Both the position numbers and the translations under genes were made by a program. A DNA stretch of 19,383 nucleotides from a virus. The stretch's first letter is position 1. Every line of letters begins with the position of its first letter. This document shows, piece by piece, positions 74 to 19,383 of this stretch. The stretch is taken from UHGV virus genome UHGV-1344012; one strand, 5' to 3'. The notes beneath the pieces are model-generated. The model was not told the origin of the DNA. It did not search any database and was given only the letters and a program-made list of their open reading frames with translations.

Positions 74-1387
74 TTAACTTACTGATTTTAATAATCCTCC
101 CGTACTGCTCTCGTGGCTATGGGGCATCAATGGGGCAAAATCTGCCAGCTTCTGATTCAGCATTGCGATCTGCTCTGCGCTGCTGTCAGCCATCCATGCA
201 CCGTAAACATTGAACACCATCTGCGCGCTCGCATGCCCCATCTGACTGGCAATAAAACTCGGGTTTGCACCAGCAGATAATGACCAGCACGCATAGGTAT
301 GTCGTGACTGGTACGCCTTTCTGTGTCTGATCCCCGCGCGCTTTAGTGCAGCTTCCCATGAGTCGCCTACTGAATCGACCCGGTAGATAAATCCGACCTG
401 CTTACTGCGTCTGACCACATGCGGGTTAAAGACGAATGTACACTCATGGTTCACCGAACGACCGTACTCACGTAACTGCACTTCAATGTGATATTGCCTG
501 CCCAGCCTTGTCATTTCAGCCTGATTTTTCAGGATACTGATTGCGGGCTGGATAAGATGCACCACTCGATCTGTACTTGCCTCGGTTTTCGGTAGAGTGA
601 ACTCACCAAGTTTCGTATAATTACGCCTGACGGTAATTGTTCCCGCCTTCAGGTCGATATCTTCCCAGGCCAGGGAGACCAGTTCCCCGTGACGCATTCC
701 TGTGTACACTGCTAATGACCACAGGTTTTTCGTCTGCTGATGCCGGCATGCATCTATCAGGCGAATAAATTCATCACGAGACAGAGGATCTGGTTCTGCC
801 CTGGCTTTTTTCAGAGGTTTAATTCCCTCGAATGGGTTCACCTCTAAGTAACCGTGATCCGCAGCAAACTGAAACATTCCGGCCATTGTCGTCATGTAAT
901 AGTTCACAGTAACAACGCTTCGCCCTTTTGCCGGGGCTTTATTTTTCGTCGGACTCTGATAACCAGTTAGCAAATCTTTCCTAAGATACAGCAATTCCTC
1001 TTTGGTTACTGCTGACACCAGGCGATTACCTCCGATCCTCGGCACCATATTCCTTGCGACAGATTCATAGCGATTGAATGCGTTCGCGCAGATTTCCATC
1101 CGTTTCAGATCCAGCCATTTTTCTTCAAGTTCTTTCACTGTAATGTCTTTTTTACTTACACCAAAAGCCTTGAGGTTAGGGGAGTCAGGAAACTGGGTTG
1201 CATAATCAAAGGTTCCTGTGCGGATGGCAAAACATACTGATGTCCGCAGTTCCCCGGCTACCTTTCTGTTCTTAGCGGTGTCAGGGACACCGAGACTTTC
1301 CCTGACACGCTTACCTTTAAAATTAAACCAGATGCGTAATGTGCCACCGTGGTTTTCGACGCCTGTTGGATATGTGACTTTATCCAT
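74..1387 (-). CDS. int: Tyrosine-type site-specific integrase (phage integrase family)
   Basis: 437-aa ORF with a C-terminal region typical of tyrosine recombinases (...SRHTYACWSL..., downstream H/Y residues) and an N-terminal arm-binding-like region. Strong RBS (GGAGGT) upstream of ATG at 1385-1387; TAA stop at 74-76. Sits next to an excisionase-like gene. Confidence 0.9.
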   Translation of the reverse strand: MDKVTYPTGVENHGGTLRIWFNFKGKRVRESLGVPDTAKNRKVAGELRTSVCFAIRTGTFDYATQFPDSPNLKAFGVSKKDITVKELEEKWLDLKRMEICANAFNRYESVARNMVPRIGGNRLVSAVTKEELLYLRKDLLTGYQSPTKNKAPAKGRSVVTVNYYMTTMAGMFQFAADHGYLEVNPFEGIKPLKKARAEPDPLSRDEFIRLIDACRHQQTKNLWSLAVYTGMRHGELVSLAWEDIDLKAGTITVRRNYTKLGEFTLPKTEASTDRVVHLIQPAISILKNQAEMTRLGRQYHIEVQLREYGRSVNHECTFVFNPHVVRRSKQVGFIYRVDSVGDSWEAALKRAGIRHRKAYQSRHTYACWSLSAGANPSFIASQMGHASAQMVFNVYGAWMADSSAEQIAMLNQKLADFAPLMPHSHESSTGGLLKSVS

Positions 1388-4675: not shown

Positions 4676-4998
4676 GCTGCACCGCCTTCAACGTTACGTA
4701 ACCAGATGCATACCGCGCCATCTTCGGTGTTGTGAATTGAACCGACAAACCAACCTTCACCGGCTGGCGATTCTGGCTGCCAGGCTGAAATATCGTAACC
4801 ATCAACTTCAGGATCGATGTCTTCTTCATCCCGGTAAACTACCGTCCATTCGAGGCCGTTTTTATCCAGCCAGGCGTTGAACTCATCAGGTGAGATAAAT
4901 TCACGACCATCGCAAAATTGCTCATAGACGGGGTGAGTCCANNNNNNNNNNTAGCCGTATTGGTCGCGTTCTACTGGTAATGCCGTAAATTTGCTCAT
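4672..4998 (-). CDS. Hypothetical protein (interrupted by a 10-nt N run)
   Basis: 108-aa ORF in operon context with overlapping stop/start to its neighbours; N run at 4942-4951 lies inside it, so the sequence and frame there are unverified. Confidence 0.45.
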   Translation of the reverse strand: MSKFTALPVERDQYGXXXXWTHPVYEQFCDGREFISPDEFNAWLDKNGLEWTVVYRDEEDIDPEVDGYDISAWQPESPAGEGWFVGSIHNTEDGAVCIWLRNVEGGAA

Positions 4999-7324: not shown

Positions 7325-7486
7325 GGTTTTACCCTCGTTATGGCGGNNNNNNNNNNCTGCCACCGCCGAACTTTCTCCATACACAACAGAGAAGGGCACC
7401 TGCATTTGTCGGCGACTGCAATCGCTATCCTCTTGCCCGGGTGGATTGGGGAATGAGCCCGTCGCCCGGTGATGCCCTTGTCTCTT

Positions 7487-11196: not shown

Positions 11197-11253
11197 NNNN
11201 NNNNNNNNNNNNNNNNNNNNNNNNNNNNNNNNNNNNNNNNNNCCCAATTTGCC

Positions 11254-13041: not shown

Positions 13042-14033
13042 GAGCTCTGCTTACCCCCGAGATCGCCCATCGTATGGGGATTGTGCTGTTCCGTCCCGGT
13101 ACGGAACTGATGCACCTCTTCATGCGTGGTCGCGTTCTGCTCGAGCCTGAACCAGAAGAAATGGCGTCATTCAGTACCGGGGCTGTTCCGGCAGCCATTC
13201 AGCCGCTAGCTGATGATCCGGTAATGCGTCAGGTCTTCGAGAATGAGAGGGTTATTCAGCGTGCCGGTGGGCTTCCTTCCCTTGAGCAATGGTTGAGTAA
13301 TCGGTTTGAATGCCAGTGGCCACATTCAACGTGGCACGACAAGAACTTCACAACAATGCGGCACCCACCAGGAAGTATTCGCCTGTGCTGGCATTGCGAT
13401 CACACTTTGTCGGGGCAGCATACCGAACAGCTTGCAGGTATAGCGGCCGGAAACCTGGTATCCTGGATTCTGGAAGTCATTCGGCGTGATTCTGGTTTTC
13501 CCGAGTCGCATATCCTGACGCTTCCTGAACTGTGCTGGTGGATGGTCAGAAACGACCTGGCTGATGTTATTCCGGAAAGCGTTGCGCACAAAGGGTTGCG
13601 CCTTCCGGATGAGAAGATCCGTTCTGTCATGAGGGAAAGCGACATAGTGCCTTCCTCGTCAGCAACCAGACTCGTGCAGGAGAAGGCGAAGAAGATCCTC
13701 ACGCTCTCTGTTGATCCGGAGTCGCCAGAGTCTTTTATGCTCAGGCCAAAACGTCGCCGCTGGATAAATGAGACGTACACCCGCTGGGTTAAAACACAAC
13801 CCTGTGAGTGTTGCCGACGGCCAGCAGATGATCCGCACCATATCGTAGGGCACGGTATGGGTGGTACAGCAACAAAAGCCCATGACCTCTTCGTGATCCC
13901 TCTGTGCAGAGAGTGCCACGACGAGTTACACGCCGATGTACCAGCATTCGAGCAGAAGCATGGTACGCAGCTTGAGCTGCTACTGCGTTTTATTGATCGA
14001 GCACTGGCGATCGGCGTAATTGCGACAGCTTAA
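13038..14033 (+). CDS. DUF968 family protein (YdfU-like), Cys/His-rich C-terminus
   Basis: 331-aa ORF starting at GTG 13038 (GTGA overlap with the upstream stop; AGGGGG RBS). C-terminal Cys/His cluster (…CECCRRPADDPHHIVGHG…CRECHDELH…) and position just upstream of Q match YdfU-like proteins as recalled. Confidence 0.6.
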   Translation: MRALLTPEIAHRMGIVLFRPGTELMHLFMRGRVLLEPEPEEMASFSTGAVPAAIQPLADDPVMRQVFENERVIQRAGGLPSLEQWLSNRFECQWPHSTWHDKNFTTMRHPPGSIRLCWHCDHTLSGQHTEQLAGIAAGNLVSWILEVIRRDSGFPESHILTLPELCWWMVRNDLADVIPESVAHKGLRLPDEKIRSVMRESDIVPSSSATRLVQEKAKKILTLSVDPESPESFMLRPKRRRWINETYTRWVKTQPCECCRRPADDPHHIVGHGMGGTATKAHDLFVIPLCRECHDELHADVPAFEQKHGTQLELLLRFIDRALAIGVIATA

Positions 14034-14049
14034 GAAGTATGGAGACCGT

Positions 14050-14880
14050 ATGAATCTGGACAATGTTTTAAAGTTTTTTGCGCCTAAAGGCATGCACATC
14101 TCAGATACCAGCAGAGCGACAGCAAGTGAGCAACTTACTGTGACTGATGTAATGGCTGCACTGGGGATGACTCAGGCTGATGCAGGCATCGGGCTGGCAA
14201 TGTTTCTAGGTAAAGCTGGTATCAGCAGCAAGGACAGGGAGATGTCAATTGCCTGGCTAACGGAGTACGCGAAAGAGCATGCGCCCATGGCTATTCGTAA
14301 AGCATCAGGGAAAAAGTTTCCCCTCTGCATGCGTATCCTTGCCCGGTTTGCCTATAACGATTATTCCTCATCAGCAGCTGATTGTGTGGCATGCCCAAAA
14401 TGTAGTGGTAAAGGGTTGCTTACAACCACTAAAACCGTGACTAAAAGCCATTACACAATGCGATTGCCACAATGGGCAAAAGACCTGAGACAGTCACCAT
14501 CTGACTTTGAGGTAAAGCGAGAAGTAACTGACTCCGAGCAAAGTTTATGTTCGCGATGCCATGGTACCGGAAAGTTAAGTAAGCGATGCCAGTGTGGCGG
14601 AACTGGCAAGACGGTTGACCGTAAAGCGACAGAACTGCAGGGCGTACCAGTTTACAAAGAATGTAAGCGCTGCGAAGGGCGGGGATACAGCAGGCCAAAA
14701 TCATCGGTTGCCTATCGAGGTGTTTTTTCTGAGTTGCCGAGTCTGCCTGACCGAACGTGGCGTTATAGCTGGAAACCATTCTATGAAAGCCTGGTGACCA
14801 AATGTTTCCAGGAGGAGAGTTATTCAAGCTCTCAACTGAATCGGGTGACTAAAAGTGAAGATGTGATAAATATCGCGTAA
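14050..14880 (+). CDS. Late-gene antiterminator Q-like protein (phage 82 Q / QuuQ-type, Zn-finger-like), copy 1
   Basis: Start set at ATG 14050 (MNLDNVLKFF…) with GGAG RBS, by alignment to the paralog at 17269. Cys-rich motifs (CPKCSGKG; CSRCHGTGK…CQCGGTGK; CKRCEGRG). Followed immediately by a consensus-like promoter and intrinsic terminator, the classic Q-pR'-tR' arrangement. Confidence 0.7.
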   Translation: MNLDNVLKFFAPKGMHISDTSRATASEQLTVTDVMAALGMTQADAGIGLAMFLGKAGISSKDREMSIAWLTEYAKEHAPMAIRKASGKKFPLCMRILARFAYNDYSSSAADCVACPKCSGKGLLTTTKTVTKSHYTMRLPQWAKDLRQSPSDFEVKREVTDSEQSLCSRCHGTGKLSKRCQCGGTGKTVDRKATELQGVPVYKECKRCEGRGYSRPKSSVAYRGVFSELPSLPDRTWRYSWKPFYESLVTKCFQEESYSSSQLNRVTKSEDVINIA

Positions 14881-14923
14881 TTTAGCGTCATGATGTTTGC
14901 AATGTTGCCGTATTTGTGTATAT

Positions 14924-14951
14924 TTGACATCAATGATGGGCTTTGTATAAC
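14924..14951 (+). promoter_or_regulatory. Candidate late promoter pR' (Q utilisation region)
   Basis: -35 TTGACA (14924-14929), 16-bp spacer, -10 TATAAC (14946-14951), located 44 nt after the Q1 stop. The predicted start site falls in the N run at 14958-14974. Confidence 0.5.
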
Positions 14952-14979
14952 TATCGANNNNNNNNNNNNNNNNNGATAA

Positions 14980-15002
14980 CCTCACCTCGGTGGGGTTTTT
15001 TT
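14980..15002 (+). terminator. Intrinsic terminator (tR'-like) downstream of pR'
   Basis: Hairpin CCTCAC-CTCG-GTGGGG (one G-U pair) followed by seven T (14996-15002). Confidence 0.6.
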
Positions 15003-15013
15003 ATGGTGATAGT

Positions 15014-15550
15014 ATGGAACTGACTAAAGAAAATGTTGCATTAATTGCTGCTTTGGGGATTTTTGTGGGTACATTGATAACTTCTCTTACAAGTTACCTC
15101 CAGAACAGTAGTAGGCAGTCGCATGAGTGGCGCTCAGAAAGAAATAGAAGGAAAATTGAAAAGGGTGAACAGCTTTATGAGGCATTAATACTTTATAAAA
15201 AATTGCTTTTTGCCAATCATATGAGCTGGATAAATTGTATTGATGGGTGTTTTAAATCTGAGGACATTGGCGATAAATCAGACGAAATTCTCAGTAAAAA
15301 CCCTGAGTATAAAGGAGTTGGTGATAGAATTATTTTAATCTCTGGTGTTTATTTTCCTGAGATTAGCGTTATGTTTGATGAATCTAGAAAATTGCTGAAA
15401 CCAGCCAATTCTGTTTTCTTCAAAATACAGTCAGGTGAAGTTGACGATAAGAAGTTGGCGAAGAATATAATTCTAAACGCTGGTCATAATTTTGATAAGG
15501 AGGCTAATAAAATGTTGGACTGTTTATCGAAAGAGATTAGATCGTTGTAA
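15014..15550 (+). CDS. AT-rich cargo (moron) gene: membrane-anchored protein of unknown function
   Basis: 178-aa ORF from ATG 15014 (MELTKENV…) with one N-terminal hydrophobic helix (ALIAALGIFVGTLITSLTSYL) and a Lys/Glu-rich soluble domain. Visibly much more AT-rich than the flanking phage genes; bracketed by two intrinsic terminators. The track's GTG start at 14990 lies inside the terminator hairpin. Confidence 0.6.
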   Translation: MELTKENVALIAALGIFVGTLITSLTSYLQNSSRQSHEWRSERNRRKIEKGEQLYEALILYKKLLFANHMSWINCIDGCFKSEDIGDKSDEILSKNPEYKGVGDRIILISGVYFPEISVMFDESRKLLKPANSVFFKIQSGEVDDKKLAKNIILNAGHNFDKEANKMLDCLSKEIRSL

Positions 15551-15568
15551 CAACTCAAAATTAACGAA

Positions 15569-15592
15569 GGTCACCAGATGGTGGCCTTTTTT
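15569..15592 (+). terminator. Intrinsic terminator after the cargo gene
   Basis: Hairpin GGTCACC-AGAT-GGTGGCC (one G-U pair) followed by TTTTTT (15587-15592), then TATT. Confidence 0.6.
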
Positions 15593-15638
15593 ATTCCCCT
15601 CGTTCTGAGAGGACTCACAGCAATAAAGAGGGGGCTAA

Positions 15639-16025
15639 ATGTCCGATCCGATTTCCGGTACTGGGCTGGCTGGTGGTGTCCTGACGGGAGCTAGCGTCTA
15701 TGGATTTCTGTCCGGAACCGATTACGGCGTGGTGTTTGGCGCATTTGCCGGAGCTGTATTTTACATTGCAACAGCTGCGGACCTTAGTGCAACGCGTCGG
15801 CTGGCGTATTTTGTCGTGTCCTACATCGCCGGGATCATCTGCTCAGGGCTGGTGGGTTCAAAGCTGGCTGACTGGACTGGTTACAGTGATAAGCCTCTGG
15901 ATGCCATCGGTGCCGTAATCGTTTCGGCTTTAGCTGTCAAAATCCTGACGTTCCTGAATAACCAGGATGTCGGCTCTTTGGTGGCGCTGATAACGCGCCG
16001 GGGAGGTTCTGGTGGTACTAAATGA
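15639..16025 (+). CDS. Holin-like membrane protein (about 4 predicted TM segments)
   Basis: 128-aa Gly/Ala-rich ORF with several hydrophobic stretches, GAGGGGG RBS, first gene of the lysis cassette upstream of the endolysin. Confidence 0.6.
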   Translation: MSDPISGTGLAGGVLTGASVYGFLSGTDYGVVFGAFAGAVFYIATAADLSATRRLAYFVVSYIAGIICSGLVGSKLADWTGYSDKPLDAIGAVIVSALAVKILTFLNNQDVGSLVALITRRGGSGGTK

Positions 16026-16293
16026 CCCATCGGCAACAATCAACGCTCTTCTATGCGTCGGGGTGGTGATTACCCTGATGTTTTATCGTCGTGGTGATTC
16101 ACGCCATCGTCCGTGGGTTTCGCGTTTAGCCTGGCTAATTACTGTCACGTACAGCGCTGTGCCTCTGGCCTACCTGTGCGGGATTTATCCTCATTCGTCA
16201 TGGGCCACTATTGGGGCCAACATTATTTTCCTTTCCGTGCTAGTGGCCGTCAGAGGCAACGTTGCGCGCCTGGTTGATCATCTGAGGCACTAA
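16012..16293 (+). CDS. Second holin-like membrane protein (3 predicted TM segments)
   Basis: 93-aa ORF starting at GTG 16012 with GGGAGG RBS 5 nt upstream; overlaps the end of the preceding gene and ends at the endolysin start (TAATG). Three hydrophobic helices. Confidence 0.5.
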   Translation: MVLNDPSATINALLCVGVVITLMFYRRGDSRHRPWVSRLAWLITVTYSAVPLAYLCGIYPHSSWATIGANIIFLSVLVAVRGNVARLVDHLRH

Positions 16294-16907
16294 TGAACCA
16301 ATCACAATTTCAAAAGGCGGCTGGCATTAGCGCCGGGTTAGCTGCGCGCTGGTTTCCGCACATTGATGCTGCAATGAAAGAGTTTGGAATCACAGCAGTT
16401 AACGATCAGGCCATGTTCATTGCACAAGTTGGGCATGAATCTGCTGGTTTTACCTCGCTGGTGGAAAGCTTCAACTACTCGGTAGACGGGCTGAAGAAAA
16501 CCTTTAGTAAACGCCTGACGCCTTATCAGTGTGAAATGCTGGGGCGTGTCGATGGTAAGCAGGTAGCCCACCAGCCGCAAATAGCCAATCTGGTTTATGG
16601 TGACCGCATGGGGAATAACAGCCAGGGTGACGGCTGGAAATATCGCGGTCGTGGCCTGCTGCAAATCACTGGTCGTGAGAACTACACCAAATGCGGTACG
16701 GCGCTGAAGCTTGACCTTGTGAGCACTCCGGAACTATTGACGCAAGAGCGACACGCGGCCCGTTCGGCGGCATGGTACTTCACGTTACGCGGTTGTCTCC
16801 TCTATTCGGGGGATGTGGAACGCGTCACGCAGATTATTAACGGCGGGCAGAACGGCATTAAAGACCGCCGTGAACGTTACGCCAAAGCTAAAGCCGCACT
16901 GGTGTGA
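16293..16907 (+). CDS. Endolysin, glycoside hydrolase family 19 (chitinase-like lysozyme)
   Basis: 204-aa ORF with GH19-like conserved regions (…QAMFIAQVGHESAGFTSLVESFNYS…, …GWKYRGRGLLQITGRENY…) as in Salmonella/E. coli phage GH19 endolysins; follows the holin-like genes. Confidence 0.8.
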   Translation: MNQSQFQKAAGISAGLAARWFPHIDAAMKEFGITAVNDQAMFIAQVGHESAGFTSLVESFNYSVDGLKKTFSKRLTPYQCEMLGRVDGKQVAHQPQIANLVYGDRMGNNSQGDGWKYRGRGLLQITGRENYTKCGTALKLDLVSTPELLTQERHAARSAAWYFTLRGCLLYSGDVERVTQIINGGQNGIKDRRERYAKAKAALV

Positions 16908-16914
16908 GGTCACT

Positions 16915-17265
16915 ATGGGACTTGAAATGATTATCGGCCTGATTGTTGCCGCGCTGGCAGCAATTGCAGGTGCCTTTGGTCTGGGTAAATCTCGCGGTAC
17001 CAGTATCGCAGAAACAAAAGCGGACCGTATGGGTTATGAGAGCCTCGACAAAGACGAACAGGCCGCAATCAATCTTCCTGCCTCAATGATTCGCTTGTTG
17101 AAGCAACGAGAGGGCGAAGGGTGGATCGGTGACATCGGAGCTAATTTCGACTCTCGCTCTCACCAGTTCCTGGAAGGCGAGAAAAAACCATTTAACTACC
17201 TGGTCGGTAAGCCGCAAAGCGAGTTTGATCTCGAGTGGGAAGCCAGCAACGTAACGAGGGTTTGA
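16915..17265 (+). CDS. Small membrane-anchored protein in the spanin position (function unknown)
   Basis: 116-aa ORF from ATG 16915 (GAGG RBS) with one N-terminal TM helix (MIIGLIVAALAAIAGAFGL). It lacks the long coiled coil expected of an Rz-type i-spanin, so the spanin role is not supported. Confidence 0.45.
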   Translation: MGLEMIIGLIVAALAAIAGAFGLGKSRGTSIAETKADRMGYESLDKDEQAAINLPASMIRLLKQREGEGWIGDIGANFDSRSHQFLEGEKKPFNYLVGKPQSEFDLEWEASNVTRV

Positions 17266-17268
17266 GAT

Positions 17269-18101
17269 ATGAAACTTGAAGCTTCACTAAAACACTTTAG
17301 CCCTCAGGGTATGCACATCAGCGACGACGTGAAAGGAACCTCTCCGGACCGCCTTACAGGAACAGATGTAATGGCGGCAATTGGCACCACCANNNNNNNN
17401 NNNNNNNNNNNNNNNNNNNNNNNNNNNNNNNNNNNATCAGCAAAACGGATGAACAGCTCGCAGTTCAGGCGCTGGCGCGATATGCGATGGATGTCGCACC
17501 GAAGAATGTTCGCAAAGCAGCTGGTGGGCAGTTCGGATGGTGCATGCAGATGTTGGCACAATTTGCCTTTGCTGATTATTCACGTTCGGCGGCTACAAGC
17601 GTGACGTGTCACAGCTGCAGTGGTACCGGACGAACAACCCGCGAACAGATTACCCGCAAGGTTTCGTACCCATGGGGTAAAGCTCCATACTGGGCCTGCC
17701 GCTCTCGTGCTGTTCGACCGTCTGACTGGGAGCAGTGGATGGAGGTAACAGAGGTTGTACCGGCGGTCTGTGATGCTTGCGAAGGCAAGGGAACGATCAG
17801 CGCCCGTTGTCGTTGCGGCGGTAAAGGCGAGGTTCTAGACCGCAAGGCCACAAGCGAGCGCGGCGCGCCGGTGTTTAAAACCTGCGAGCGCTGCAGCGGA
17901 AATGGATTTTCTGCGGTGCCGTCTACCGCAGCCTATAAAGTGATACTGAAGCGCGTTCCGGATCTGCACGTCAGAACATGGACTCGCAACTGGAAACCGT
18001 TTCTTGAGGCGCTGGTAAGCATTTGTCAGCAGGAGGAGGGAAACGCCGCAAGAGAATTTCAATCTGCAACCAGTTTAGGCGAAGAAGGTGACGAAATTTA
18101 G
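17269..18101 (+). CDS. Second Q-like antiterminator paralog (interrupted by a 43-nt N run)
   Basis: N-terminus (MKLEASLKHFSPQGMHISD…TGTDVMAAIG) and C-terminal Cys-rich region (CHSCSGTG…; CDACEGKG…CRCGGKG…; CERCSGNG; …RTWTRNWKPF…) align with Q1. Span is not a multiple of 3, so the N run (17393-17435) does not reflect true length. GAGGG RBS before ATG 17269. Confidence 0.65.
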
Positions 18102-18190
18102 CATTATTACGACATAAGGCTTGATTTTGTCCGAAGTTGTCGTGTATGCTTCTAATCATGCGGAGTAACGCCTGAAAGATTTCAACAATA

Positions 18191-18211
18191 AGCCCCTTGC
18201 GGGGCTTTTTT
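18191..18211. terminator. Bidirectional intrinsic terminator between Q2 and the convergent orphan gene
   Basis: Perfect hairpin AGCCCC-TTGC-GGGGCT followed by a T-tract on the plus strand and preceded by an A-rich run (T-rich for the minus-strand transcript). The minus-strand gene's stop codon (18210-18212) overlaps the T-tract. Confidence 0.65.
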
Positions 18212-19160
18212 ATGGCAGCGAGTTAACGAAAGAACTGAAAAGGGCCTTATCTTTATTGCTAATTGATTTTTTCAAATGTAGTTGATGATTTAAAGGTTTA
18301 AAGTTTTCCTTTGTGAGATATATACATGCTTTCTCAAAACGATCCTGAAGGAATTGAAATCTTTCATTCAGCCTGGAAACTTTTAATCCTAATGACATGA
18401 CCTTCTTCTCAGGAATATCGTCAGGATTGCAATTATTGAGTTCTTCCAGCACAAGGCGAATATCTCTTTCGAAGATTAGCGCTATGTTATAATCGTTGAG
18501 GAGGCATTCAGGATTACGAACAATGCCAATTACTTCGTCGATGAATTGTGGTTTTACATTATCCTCAGCATTTTCATCTTCGTTATCGGAAGGTTTTTGA
18601 GACATAACATTCGACAACTGCATTTCTTCCTTGGTTTTCCTTCTGGGAAGTAAAACTTTTCCATCTCCTAAAGCAGCCATACGTTTCAAAGCTTGACTCC
18701 CGGCTCGGCCAACTACTTTAGAATCTCTTAAATCTAAAATTTTATGTGCGACCCATTCTAATGATGGTTCACTGGCTTCGATTTTGGCTTTTGCTTGGTA
18801 ATGGAGAAAAATATTTTTCTTGGCTTCCTTGAGGGCTGTTAGATATCTGTGGAAATTTGCCTTTTTCTCGAGGTCAGTGGCTAGGTTTTCAAATGCTATA
18901 CCGAAGACTTTTGTACCGCAAACGTGACCCAGGTTCGTCTCCAGACCATCCTCAGTAAGAACAAGAAACCCTTTTTTATGGCCTGTTCGACAGCTCGACT
19001 TGCCACACGGGATTTCTTCCGGGAGGTCATCATAATAACCAAAAACATCGGATAATTGTTGATCGGTCAGTTCCAGCCTGGAATGATAGCTTTCCCGAGC
19101 TTGAATTTCTGTCCAGTCATTAATGCGATCAAAGCTATTGCCGTTTTTAATAAAAATCAT
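18210..19160 (-). CDS. AT-rich orphan protein of unknown function (316 aa)
   Basis: Long uninterrupted ORF with a GGGA-type RBS before ATG 19158-19160. Visibly AT-rich relative to the phage backbone, with an acidic low-complexity stretch (SDNEDENAEDN) and a Cys/His cluster (PCGKSSCRTGHKKG…GHVCG). No recognisable family by eye. Confidence 0.6.
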   Translation of the reverse strand: MIFIKNGNSFDRINDWTEIQARESYHSRLELTDQQLSDVFGYYDDLPEEIPCGKSSCRTGHKKGFLVLTEDGLETNLGHVCGTKVFGIAFENLATDLEKKANFHRYLTALKEAKKNIFLHYQAKAKIEASEPSLEWVAHKILDLRDSKVVGRAGSQALKRMAALGDGKVLLPRRKTKEEMQLSNVMSQKPSDNEDENAEDNVKPQFIDEVIGIVRNPECLLNDYNIALIFERDIRLVLEELNNCNPDDIPEKKVMSLGLKVSRLNERFQFLQDRFEKACIYLTKENFKPLNHQLHLKKSISNKDKALFSSFVNSLP

Positions 19161-19285
19161 ATCTTCCCTTGCTCTGGTTAGATTGAAAGCACTGCCGCTT
19201 GATATTTAACCATTTCCCTGATTGTTTTTCATCATAAAACCATATTATTGCAAGGGTAGTTTTACCTATGTATCTTCTTGCTCCC

Positions 19286-19362
19286 GGCCCTTTAGCTCAG
19301 TTGGTTAGAGCGTGCGACTCATAATCGCCCGGTCGCTGGTTCAAGTCCAGCAAGGGCCACCA
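19286..19362 (+). tRNA. tRNA with CAU anticodon (Ile2-lysidine type or Met; ileX/ileZ-like)
   Basis: Cloverleaf readable by eye: acceptor GGCCCTT/AAGGGCC, D-arm GCTC-AGTTGGTTA-GAGC, anticodon loop CTCATAA (CAT), T-arm GCTGG-TTCAAGT-CCAGC, discriminator A and encoded CCA. A candidate promoter (TTGCAA 19248-19253, 17-bp spacer, TATCTT) and GC-rich discriminator lie upstream. Confidence 0.85.
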
Positions 19363-19383
19363 GACCGCCACTAGCTCATCGGG

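Follow-up and report, generated by a model that had tools for sequence, protein, structure and literature searches.

A predicted ileZ-type tRNA-Ile2 gene at the head of a tRNA array in a lambda-like prophage

We analysed 19,383 nucleotides (nt) of the virus genome UHGV-1344012, here called the window, near whose right end lies a transfer RNA (tRNA) gene with the anticodon CAT (positions 19286 to 19362, plus strand). The tRNA is phage encoded and forms the first unit of a small array in the late-operon leader of a lambda-like prophage. The best explanation, to which we assign a probability of roughly 0.8, is that it is an ileZ-type phage tRNA-Ile2, that the array is transcribed both from its own promoter and under the control of the Q2 antiterminator, and that the gene adds capacity for decoding AUA. 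The kind of feature is already known, namely the ileZ-type tRNA-Ile2 of lambdoid phages, and RefSeq copies of this gene already carry the label tRNA-Ile. The only unexpected points are an unpaired position 27:43 in the tRNA and a neighboring tRNA-like element that we call class B, and these lie mostly outside the window.

An intact tRNA gene with an Ile2 body

ARAGORN made a single tRNA call in the whole window, a 77-nt gene at 19286 to 19362 whose CAT anticodon begins at nucleotide 35. The Rfam model RF00005 matched positions 19286 to 19359 over its full length (1 to 71 of 71); the score of 69.2 bits is well over the gathering score of 29, and the E-value of 1.5e-13 puts the match far above chance level. 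Both programs describe a canonical cloverleaf tRNA with a genomic CAT anticodon, as expected of a bacterial tRNA-Ile2. The sequence of the gene is GGCCCUUUAGCUCAGUUGGUUAGAGCGUGCGACUCAUAAUCGCCCGGUCGCUGGUUCAAGUCCAGCAAGGGCCACCA, and its 3' CCA is genome encoded. We set minimum-free-energy folding aside as evidence, as it failed to recover the complete cloverleaf for the tRNAs of the array. Between the Q2 stop codon at 18101 and the start of the gene the distance is 1,185 nt. An earlier note on this DNA, made from the sequence alone, had placed a CAT-anticodon tRNA with an ileX-like body about 1.2 kilobases (kb) after Q2, and each part of that description agrees with what we found. This is a real, intact tRNA gene inside a lambda-like prophage, and an ordinary feature.

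We compared the tRNA with the chromosomal genes of Escherichia coli K-12. It is 93.5% identical to ileY and 90.9% identical to ileX, from which it differs at 5 to 7 positions. Its acceptor stem, GGCCCUU/AAGGGCC, is that of ileY and supplies the pairs C4:G69 and C5:G68. In forming lysidine, E. coli TilS contacts these two pairs directly and uses them as its dominant identity elements (Ikeuchi et al. via PMC12514573; PMC11947777). The identical copies in five complete E. coli genomes are labelled tRNA-Ile in RefSeq. A73, U12:A23, C29:G41, A37 and A38, which are identity elements for isoleucyl-tRNA synthetase (IleRS), match ileX and ileY. The NCBI pipeline uses tRNAscan-SE for its tRNA calls. Version 2 of tRNAscan-SE has isotype-specific models that separate Ile2, Met and fMet (PMC8450103).

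The anticodon stem differs from that of ileX and ileY at one pair. Positions 27 and 43 of the tRNA (window positions 19312 and 19329) form a U.C mismatch, flagged by Rfam as a non-standard pair, where both chromosomal genes have G.U; pairs 28:42 to 31:39 are the same in all three. Among phage-type Ile2 genes on viral contigs, 27:43 was non-standard in 198 of 217 copies (A.C, U.C, G.A, C.U, C.C or U.U), and G:C, which is one transition from A.C, was present in none of the 217. In part the mismatch is inherited within the lineage, so the copies do not represent many independent events. It might relate to discrimination by TilS or by methionyl-tRNA synthetase (MetRS), or to evasion of nucleases.

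The array lies in the late-operon leader of a prophage

Five complete E. coli chromosomes contain the stretch from position 18100 to the window end at 19383 with 100% identity (99.9% in one). The exact tRNA allele was found in 5 of 5,426 complete E. coli genomes, always within a prophage module consisting of Q2, a gene that we call ORF316 (an open reading frame for 316 amino acids) and the tRNA. Of 108 related arrays on viral contigs, 26 carry it. The window is a mosaic relative of the prophages in the five genomes, and at most 73% of it is covered by any one complete E. coli genome.

We examined the genome context in three of the five genomes with the identical module, MB06232, MS 115-1 and FAM21845. 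The first half of the MB06232 prophage comprises the integrase and excisionase genes, early genes, Q1, a first lysis cassette, Q2 and, on the opposite strand, ORF316. After ORF316 come tRNA-Ile, tRNA-Thr, tRNA-Gly, a class II holin, a lysozyme, terminase, and head and tail genes, so that phage late genes extend more than 20 kb past the tRNA in this genome, the only one viewed that far. FAM21845 has the same dual-Q layout with another downstream holin and lysozyme, and MS 115-1 is an ordinary single-Q phage that carries the same Q/ORF316/tRNA module followed by a third kind of lysis cassette. The array after the window tRNA in these relatives consists of a tRNA-like element, tRNA-Thr(UGU) and tRNA-Gly(UCC), and lysis genes follow. 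The array thus lies between Q with its candidate late promoter, pR', and the lysis genes, on the late-operon strand, in all three genomes. The order Q, tRNAs and then lysis or stx genes is found likewise in phage PA29 and in CFSAN029787.

The earlier note had left open whether the tRNA is phage encoded, with a late region that continues past the window, or is a chromosomal tRNA marking the right boundary of the element, and it had proposed that the DNA beyond 19383 be inspected. In the identical relatives that DNA contains more tRNAs and a holin/lysozyme/lysis cassette, and the first of the two options is favored. The window would therefore end inside the late-operon leader of a lambdoid prophage, and the element would continue well past 19383.

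Candidate promoters and proposed path of transcription

A candidate sigma-70 promoter of the tRNA array lies at 19248 to 19276 on the plus strand, with a −35 element TTGCAA (19248 to 19253), a 17-nt spacer and a −10 element TATCTT (19271 to 19276). It matches the consensus at 8 of 12 positions, which is below the cut-off of the promoter scanner. A layout that mostly reads TTGCR-N17-TATCAT or TATTAT is kept before Ile2 in about 109 arrays, while the DNA further upstream is unrelated, and from this conservation we infer that the array has a dedicated promoter. The −10 element is followed, up to the 5' end of the mature tRNA, by a GC-rich 9-nt stretch, CTTGCTCCC (19277 to 19285, plus strand), kept as CTCGCTCCC or similar in relatives, which may serve as a discriminator or very short 5' leader.

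Further upstream, the Q2 antiterminator gene occupies 17269 to 18101 on the plus strand, as judged from a match to PF03589 (Antiterm) and from alignment with the intact 278-amino-acid gene of MB06232. It is followed by a candidate late promoter pR' at 18121 to 18150 (plus strand), read from the sequence as a −35 element TTGATT (18121 to 18126), an 18-nt spacer and a −10 element TATGCT (18145 to 18150); the promoter scanner did not flag it. An intrinsic terminator, a candidate tR' of the Q2 promoter, lies about 40 nt after the candidate pR' at 18190 to 18211, and consists of the hairpin AAGCCCC-TTGC-GGGGCTT and a T run. A terminator scan found this strong terminator on the identical sequence in locus L001 (20091 to 20108). 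It also abuts the stop codon of ORF316 on the other strand. Promoter and terminator together are a candidate for the classic pR'/tR' arrangement.

On this layout, the sigma-70 promoter at 19248 to 19276 would transcribe the array by itself. At induction, RNA polymerase modified by Q2 would start from pR' and read through the terminator, ORF316 in antisense, the tRNAs and the lysis genes. RNase P cleavage would separate the tightly packed units, whose spacers are 2 to 3 nt. Host TilS would then convert C34 of the CAU anticodon to lysidine (giving lysidine-AU), IleRS would charge the tRNA, and AUA would be read instead of AUG.

Codon use and the likely benefit of the array

The gene would in this way add AUA capacity, which is among the scarcest decoding capacities in E. 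coli, and its neighbors Thr(UGU) and Gly(UCC) would likewise serve ACA and GGA. We compared the 11,341 prophage codons of MB06232 with those of 36 core genes of the same genome, in counts per 1000. AUA was used at 5.7 in the prophage and 1.8 in the core genes (odds ratio 3.2, p = 1e-7), ACA at 11.6 and 6.3, GGA at 10.8 and 6.8, AGA at 5.5 and 0.8 (a 7-fold difference), and AGG at 4.7 and 0.3 (17-fold). The window's own open reading frames use AUA at 6.3 per 1000. The decoding tRNAs of the array (Ile2, Thr-UGU and Gly-UCC) therefore match codons that are enriched in the prophage, and the codon counts support codon supplementation moderately.

Several points weigh against codon supplementation or against the explanation as a whole. 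The strongest enrichment, that of AGA and AGG, goes unserved, as the Arg slot of the array holds a non-decoding element. The major capsid, portal and decoration genes of MB06232 contain no AUA at all, and enrichment in rare codons is also typical of horizontally acquired DNA. Most relatives have TATCAT as the −10 element, and the TATCTT of the window is one step weaker. Anticodon-stem substitutions are reported to impair E. coli TilS (PMC11947777), and the U27.C43 mismatch could affect the efficiency of that enzyme. Lysidine formation and charging with isoleucine are predicted from sequence features of the tRNA, and the late region past 19383 is reconstructed from the identical relatives.

An open reading frame directly after Q1 (14990 to 15550, plus strand) has the highest rare-codon load in the window, with 5 AUA, 5 AGA and 2 AGG among 186 codons. 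It has a GC content of 0.35 and a weak match to HemY_N, and it looks like a moron that would depend most on rare-codon tRNAs. The repressor gene of the prophage is likewise rich in AUA.

Alternative explanations

It is possible, if unlikely, that the tRNA and its array serve mainly in counter-defence, either by replacing host tRNAs destroyed by tRNA-cleaving defence nucleases or by resisting cleavage. P2-Old kills lambda-infected cells mainly by cutting the anticodon arm off host tRNA-Thr(UGU); phage tRNA-Thr(UGU) genes rescue cells from it, and the resistance is put down to changes in the CNG motifs and, in part, to a shortening of the anticodon stem (PMC12445682). A tRNA-Thr(UGU), the principal target of P2 Old in P2-lambda interference, stands third in the array, and the shortened stem has a parallel in the non-standard 27:43 of 198 of the 217 phage Ile2 copies. 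The absence of AUA from the major virion genes also fits this idea. On the other side, the Ile2 anticodon stem, UGCGA/UCGCC, has none of the paired CNG motifs that P2-Old prefers, the array's own tRNA-Thr retains the sensitive CUG/CAG motifs, and the 27:43 mismatch is partly inherited with the lineage. No nuclease is known to us to target tRNA-Ile2, and the literature examined named none. Codon supplementation is the more likely benefit. As for the tRNA-Thr(UGU) itself (L001 21342 to 21417), it has the anticodon of the P2 Old target and keeps the CUG/CAG sensitivity motifs (PMC12445682), and it probably adds gene dosage, not resistance.

We consider it improbable that the gene is an inert relic, structurally intact yet out of use and merely carried along in the late leader. 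The weakened −10 element of the window allele, the decayed copies of the same gene in a Shiga toxin (Stx) phage, L121, and the second unit of the array, which is already without decoding function, would all be in keeping with a relic. The gene is intact, however, and over 200 copies on viral contigs have a near-invariant acceptor stem, anticodon loop and T arm, in contrast to the freely varying spacers and loop of the neighboring element. The promoter is moreover conserved across unrelated upstream contexts.

Still less probable is a methionine tRNA, elongator or initiator. The CAT anticodon led ARAGORN to label the gene tRNA-Met, a 97.4%-identical gene is annotated tRNA-Met in the GenBank records of the Yersinia phages YeP1 and YeP3, and unmodified tRNA-Ile2 can be charged by MetRS in vitro. 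The earlier note rightly said that Ile2 and Met identity cannot be told apart by the anticodon; the remainder of the molecule decides between them, and points to Ile2. The comparison that it proposed, with the host's ileX, ileY and metT-type genes, returned an Ile2 body identical to neither ileX nor ileY, and identity to the Met genes of only 68.8% for metT/metU (elongator) and 59.7% for metV (initiator). At the acceptor positions where the window tRNA has C4:G69 and C5:G68, of the Ile2 type (PMC12514573), elongator tRNA-Met has U4:A69 and A5:U68. The window tRNA also has a paired G1:C72, where metV has C1 opposite A72. Initiators are marked by an unpaired 1:72 and by an anticodon stem that ends in three successive G:C pairs next to the loop, and the UGCGA/UCGCC stem is not of that kind. 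Because of the body identity, the pairs 4:69 and 5:68, the paired G1:C72 and the RefSeq tRNA-Ile labels on identical copies, we assign the gene to tRNA-Ile2, not tRNA-Met, and predict that it reads AUA; the Met labels elsewhere rest on the anticodon alone, and the Met reading is largely refuted already. In the Yersinia phages the gene (YeP1, MK733259, locus L006, 4001 to 4077) has an Ile2 acceptor stem and is labelled tRNA-Met-CAT in YeP1 and YeP3 and unannotated in YeP2, so the Met label is probably an anticodon-based mis-annotation. The annotation of 19286 to 19362 should read tRNA-Ile2, and the same correction applies to YeP1 and YeP3.

Finally, many prophages integrate into tRNA genes and this tRNA stands at the very end of the window, yet there is next to no chance that it is a chromosomal tRNA at the element's right boundary (attachment site): it is internal to the prophage in three backgrounds, with lysis genes downstream in all three genomes and terminase, head and tail genes over more than 20 kb in MB06232, which refutes that reading for the relatives, and it lies about 18 kb from the integrase and excisionase end, where the integrase gene (window 74 to 1387) adjoins a host DUF72-domain gene, yecN and cmoA, so that prophage edge, neighboring integrase and host genes beyond are all absent at the tRNA. 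The earlier note had named, as grounds for rejecting a phage origin, identity to a single-copy host tRNA with non-phage genes downstream; the rarity of the allele among E. coli genomes and its differences from ileX and ileY are the opposite of this.

A non-decoding tRNA-like element in the second slot

The class-B tRNA-like gene starts 2 nt after the CCA of Ile2, and the window ends inside it, so that only the first 19 of its 74 nt are present (19365 to 19383, plus strand); a full copy lies at L001 21266 to 21339. ARAGORN labels it tRNA-??? with a 2-base anticodon, and its loop is the 6-nt CCAGGU. RefSeq carries no annotation for it and Rfam reported nothing at E <= 1; the call rests on ARAGORN and on comparative pairing. 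The element occupies the slot held by tRNA-Arg(UCU) in CFSAN029787 or by argN (UCG) in PA29, and it shares its body with both.

We looked across 111 second-slot genes, of which 64 were normal tRNA-Arg(UCU) genes with a 7-nt loop and 47 were class B. The 47 have an 8-nt D loop, a fully paired GCAAC/GUUGU stem, a 4-nt variable loop and CCA, and their anticodon-arm loop is 5 to 6 nt long and has 14 different sequences. Two-sided pair changes occur across the family at 3:70, 7:66, 27:43, 30:40 and 51:63; the pairs were counted by a structure-aware parse, since MAFFT shifts the 3' strand of the anticodon stem by one column. Per-column diversity, taken from the gapped alignment, is about 0.5 to 0.66 in the loop, which equals that of the inter-tRNA spacers, while the 68 positions of the body are invariant with few exceptions. 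This difference argues that the loop is unconstrained and that the fold is under purifying selection. Diversifying selection on the loop was also considered, and was rejected as unnecessary given that the loop is as diverse as the spacers.

Class B thus seems to be an argN-type tRNA that is dead for decoding and kept as a structural unit. Plausibly it is kept because an RNase P cut at its 5' end frees the 3' end of Ile2 across the 2- to 3-nt spacers. What RNase P requires of its substrate is the acceptor arm, the T arm and CCA, and not the anticodon loop. A more speculative idea, which we would not favor, is that the array was shaped by conflict with tRNA-cleaving nucleases and that class B acts as a decoy, processing handle or regulator; the unpaired 27:43, the tRNA-Thr(UGU) and the maintenance of a non-decoding element with a freely varying loop all fit it. 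If it were true, class B would represent a kind of phage tRNA-like RNA that has not been described before. We found no description of short-loop tRNA-like genes in lambdoid phages in the literature, which does not prove that none exists. Class B and the unpaired 27:43 offer experimental handles on why temperate phages carry tRNAs.

Downstream of the array, between it and the holin gene, L001 has a match to the Rfam small RNA STnc100 (21758 to 21964, about 400 to 600 nt past the window end; 53.1 bits, gathering score 47). Three terminator-like hairpins lie in the same region.

The two Q genes and the cargo slot

Two Q genes, both matching PF03589, lie within 14020 to 18101 of the window (L001 15958 to 20002), with a complete cassette of two holins and a GH19 endolysin between them, and a second lysis cassette follows the tRNAs. 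FAM21845 shares this dual layout, and MS 115-1 has Q2/ORF316/tRNA as its only Q module. Recombination seems to have fused two late-control regions into this dual layout. Runs of masked N occur five times in the window, at 4942 to 4951, 7347 to 7356, 11197 to 11242, 14958 to 14974 and 17393 to 17435. The last of these (43 N, for 47 nt in MB06232) makes Q2 look like two open reading frames in different frames; this is an artefact, and we therefore rejected a frameshift in Q2.

ORF316 (18210 to 19160, minus strand) is an orphan cargo gene of 316 amino acids, taken from the open reading frame listing and assigned to PHROG 7003 (function unknown). Relatives without ORF316 are homologous to the window across Q2 as far as about 18158, near the predicted start site of pR', and again from about 19233. 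Since other relatives hold unrelated genes between these two break points, we place ORF316 in a variable cargo slot (18158 to 19233) between the Q2/pR' block and the tRNA promoter.

Homologues of ORF316 fall into 15 clusters, all hypothetical, the named ones coming from Enterobacterales. The residues C52, C57, H61, H79 and C81 are conserved. ORF316 had no match in Pfam, PADLOC, NCBIfam or the sequences of the PDB. A single-sequence AlphaFold model was unusable (predicted local distance difference test, pLDDT, 34), and when an alignment-based model (pLDDT 71) was compared with the PDB by Foldseek, nothing matched significantly (best E 0.8). These sequence and PDB fold searches found no link between ORF316 and tRNA biology.

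Relation to ileZ and other known tRNAs

The earlier note had likened the tRNA to the ileZ-type genes of Stx phages. A sensitive search of sequenced phages returned 331 records at 90 to 95% identity to the tRNA, many of them Stx2a-converting phages. In the Stx2 phage PA29 of Escherichia (KP682382) the order is Q, tRNA-Ile, tRNA-Arg, tRNA-Arg, stx2A and stx2B; we use for its tRNAs the gene names ileZ, argN and argO of phage 933W. The window tRNA and PA29 ileZ agree in strand, in position after Q and before the late genes, in the acceptor stem and in a non-paired 27:43, and they are 93.5% identical. The promoter layout is shared as well, that of PA29 being TTGCAG-N17-TATTAT followed by about 9 GC-rich nt. 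The window tRNA differs by an additional nucleotide in its D loop and by U27 in place of the A27 of PA29. Its array has a non-decoding argN-type element, Thr(UGU) and Gly(UCC) where PA29 has two tRNA-Arg genes, it has no stx genes, and a 1.07-kb ORF316 cassette separates the tRNA from Q.

A second Stx phage of E. coli, L121, has a 62%-identical homologue of ORF316 between Q and stxA/stxB. At 2560 to 2760 on its minus strand are the same promoter, a decayed Ile2, a decayed class-B element, an intact tRNA-Arg(UCU), a terminator and stxA. L121 illustrates how the Ile2/class-B module decays.

Another closely related array is that of the CFSAN029787-type prophages, present in many E. coli, in which Q is followed by tRNA-Ile/Arg(UCU)/Thr(UGU)/Gly(UCC) and a class II holin. 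Order and spacing are the same as here, with the array between Q and the class II holin. The Ile2 genes are 96.1% identical, the Gly genes 100%, and the 3' two-thirds of the Thr genes 100%, with two differences in the Thr D arm. In place of Arg(UCU) the present array has the class-B element with its 6-nt loop, and the upstream Q type and cargo differ. The PA29 ileZ identity and promoter, the module of L121 and these CFSAN029787-type arrays show that the likeness to Stx-phage ileZ is true homology. The Q/cargo/tRNA module of this non-toxigenic prophage and the stx-bearing module of Shiga-toxin phages are thus one and the same mosaic unit, and this is useful for reading prophage architecture and predicting sites of cargo insertion.

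In the Yersinia phages YeP1 to YeP3, of another host genus, the CAT tRNA (97.4% identical) likewise lies between Q and holin, beside tRNA-Gly(UCC); these arrays have a pseudo-tRNA upstream and no Thr gene. The chromosomal ileY and ileX of E. coli K-12 share with the window tRNA the anticodon CAU, the anticodon loop CUCAUAA, the T arm, A73, U12:A23 and C29:G41, and ileY has the identical acceptor stem, including C4:G69 and C5:G68. The window tRNA differs from both by an extra U in the D loop, by G26 for A26, U27.C43 for G27.U43 and C44 for U44, and by its place in a prophage and its rarity in the species (5 of 5,426 genomes).

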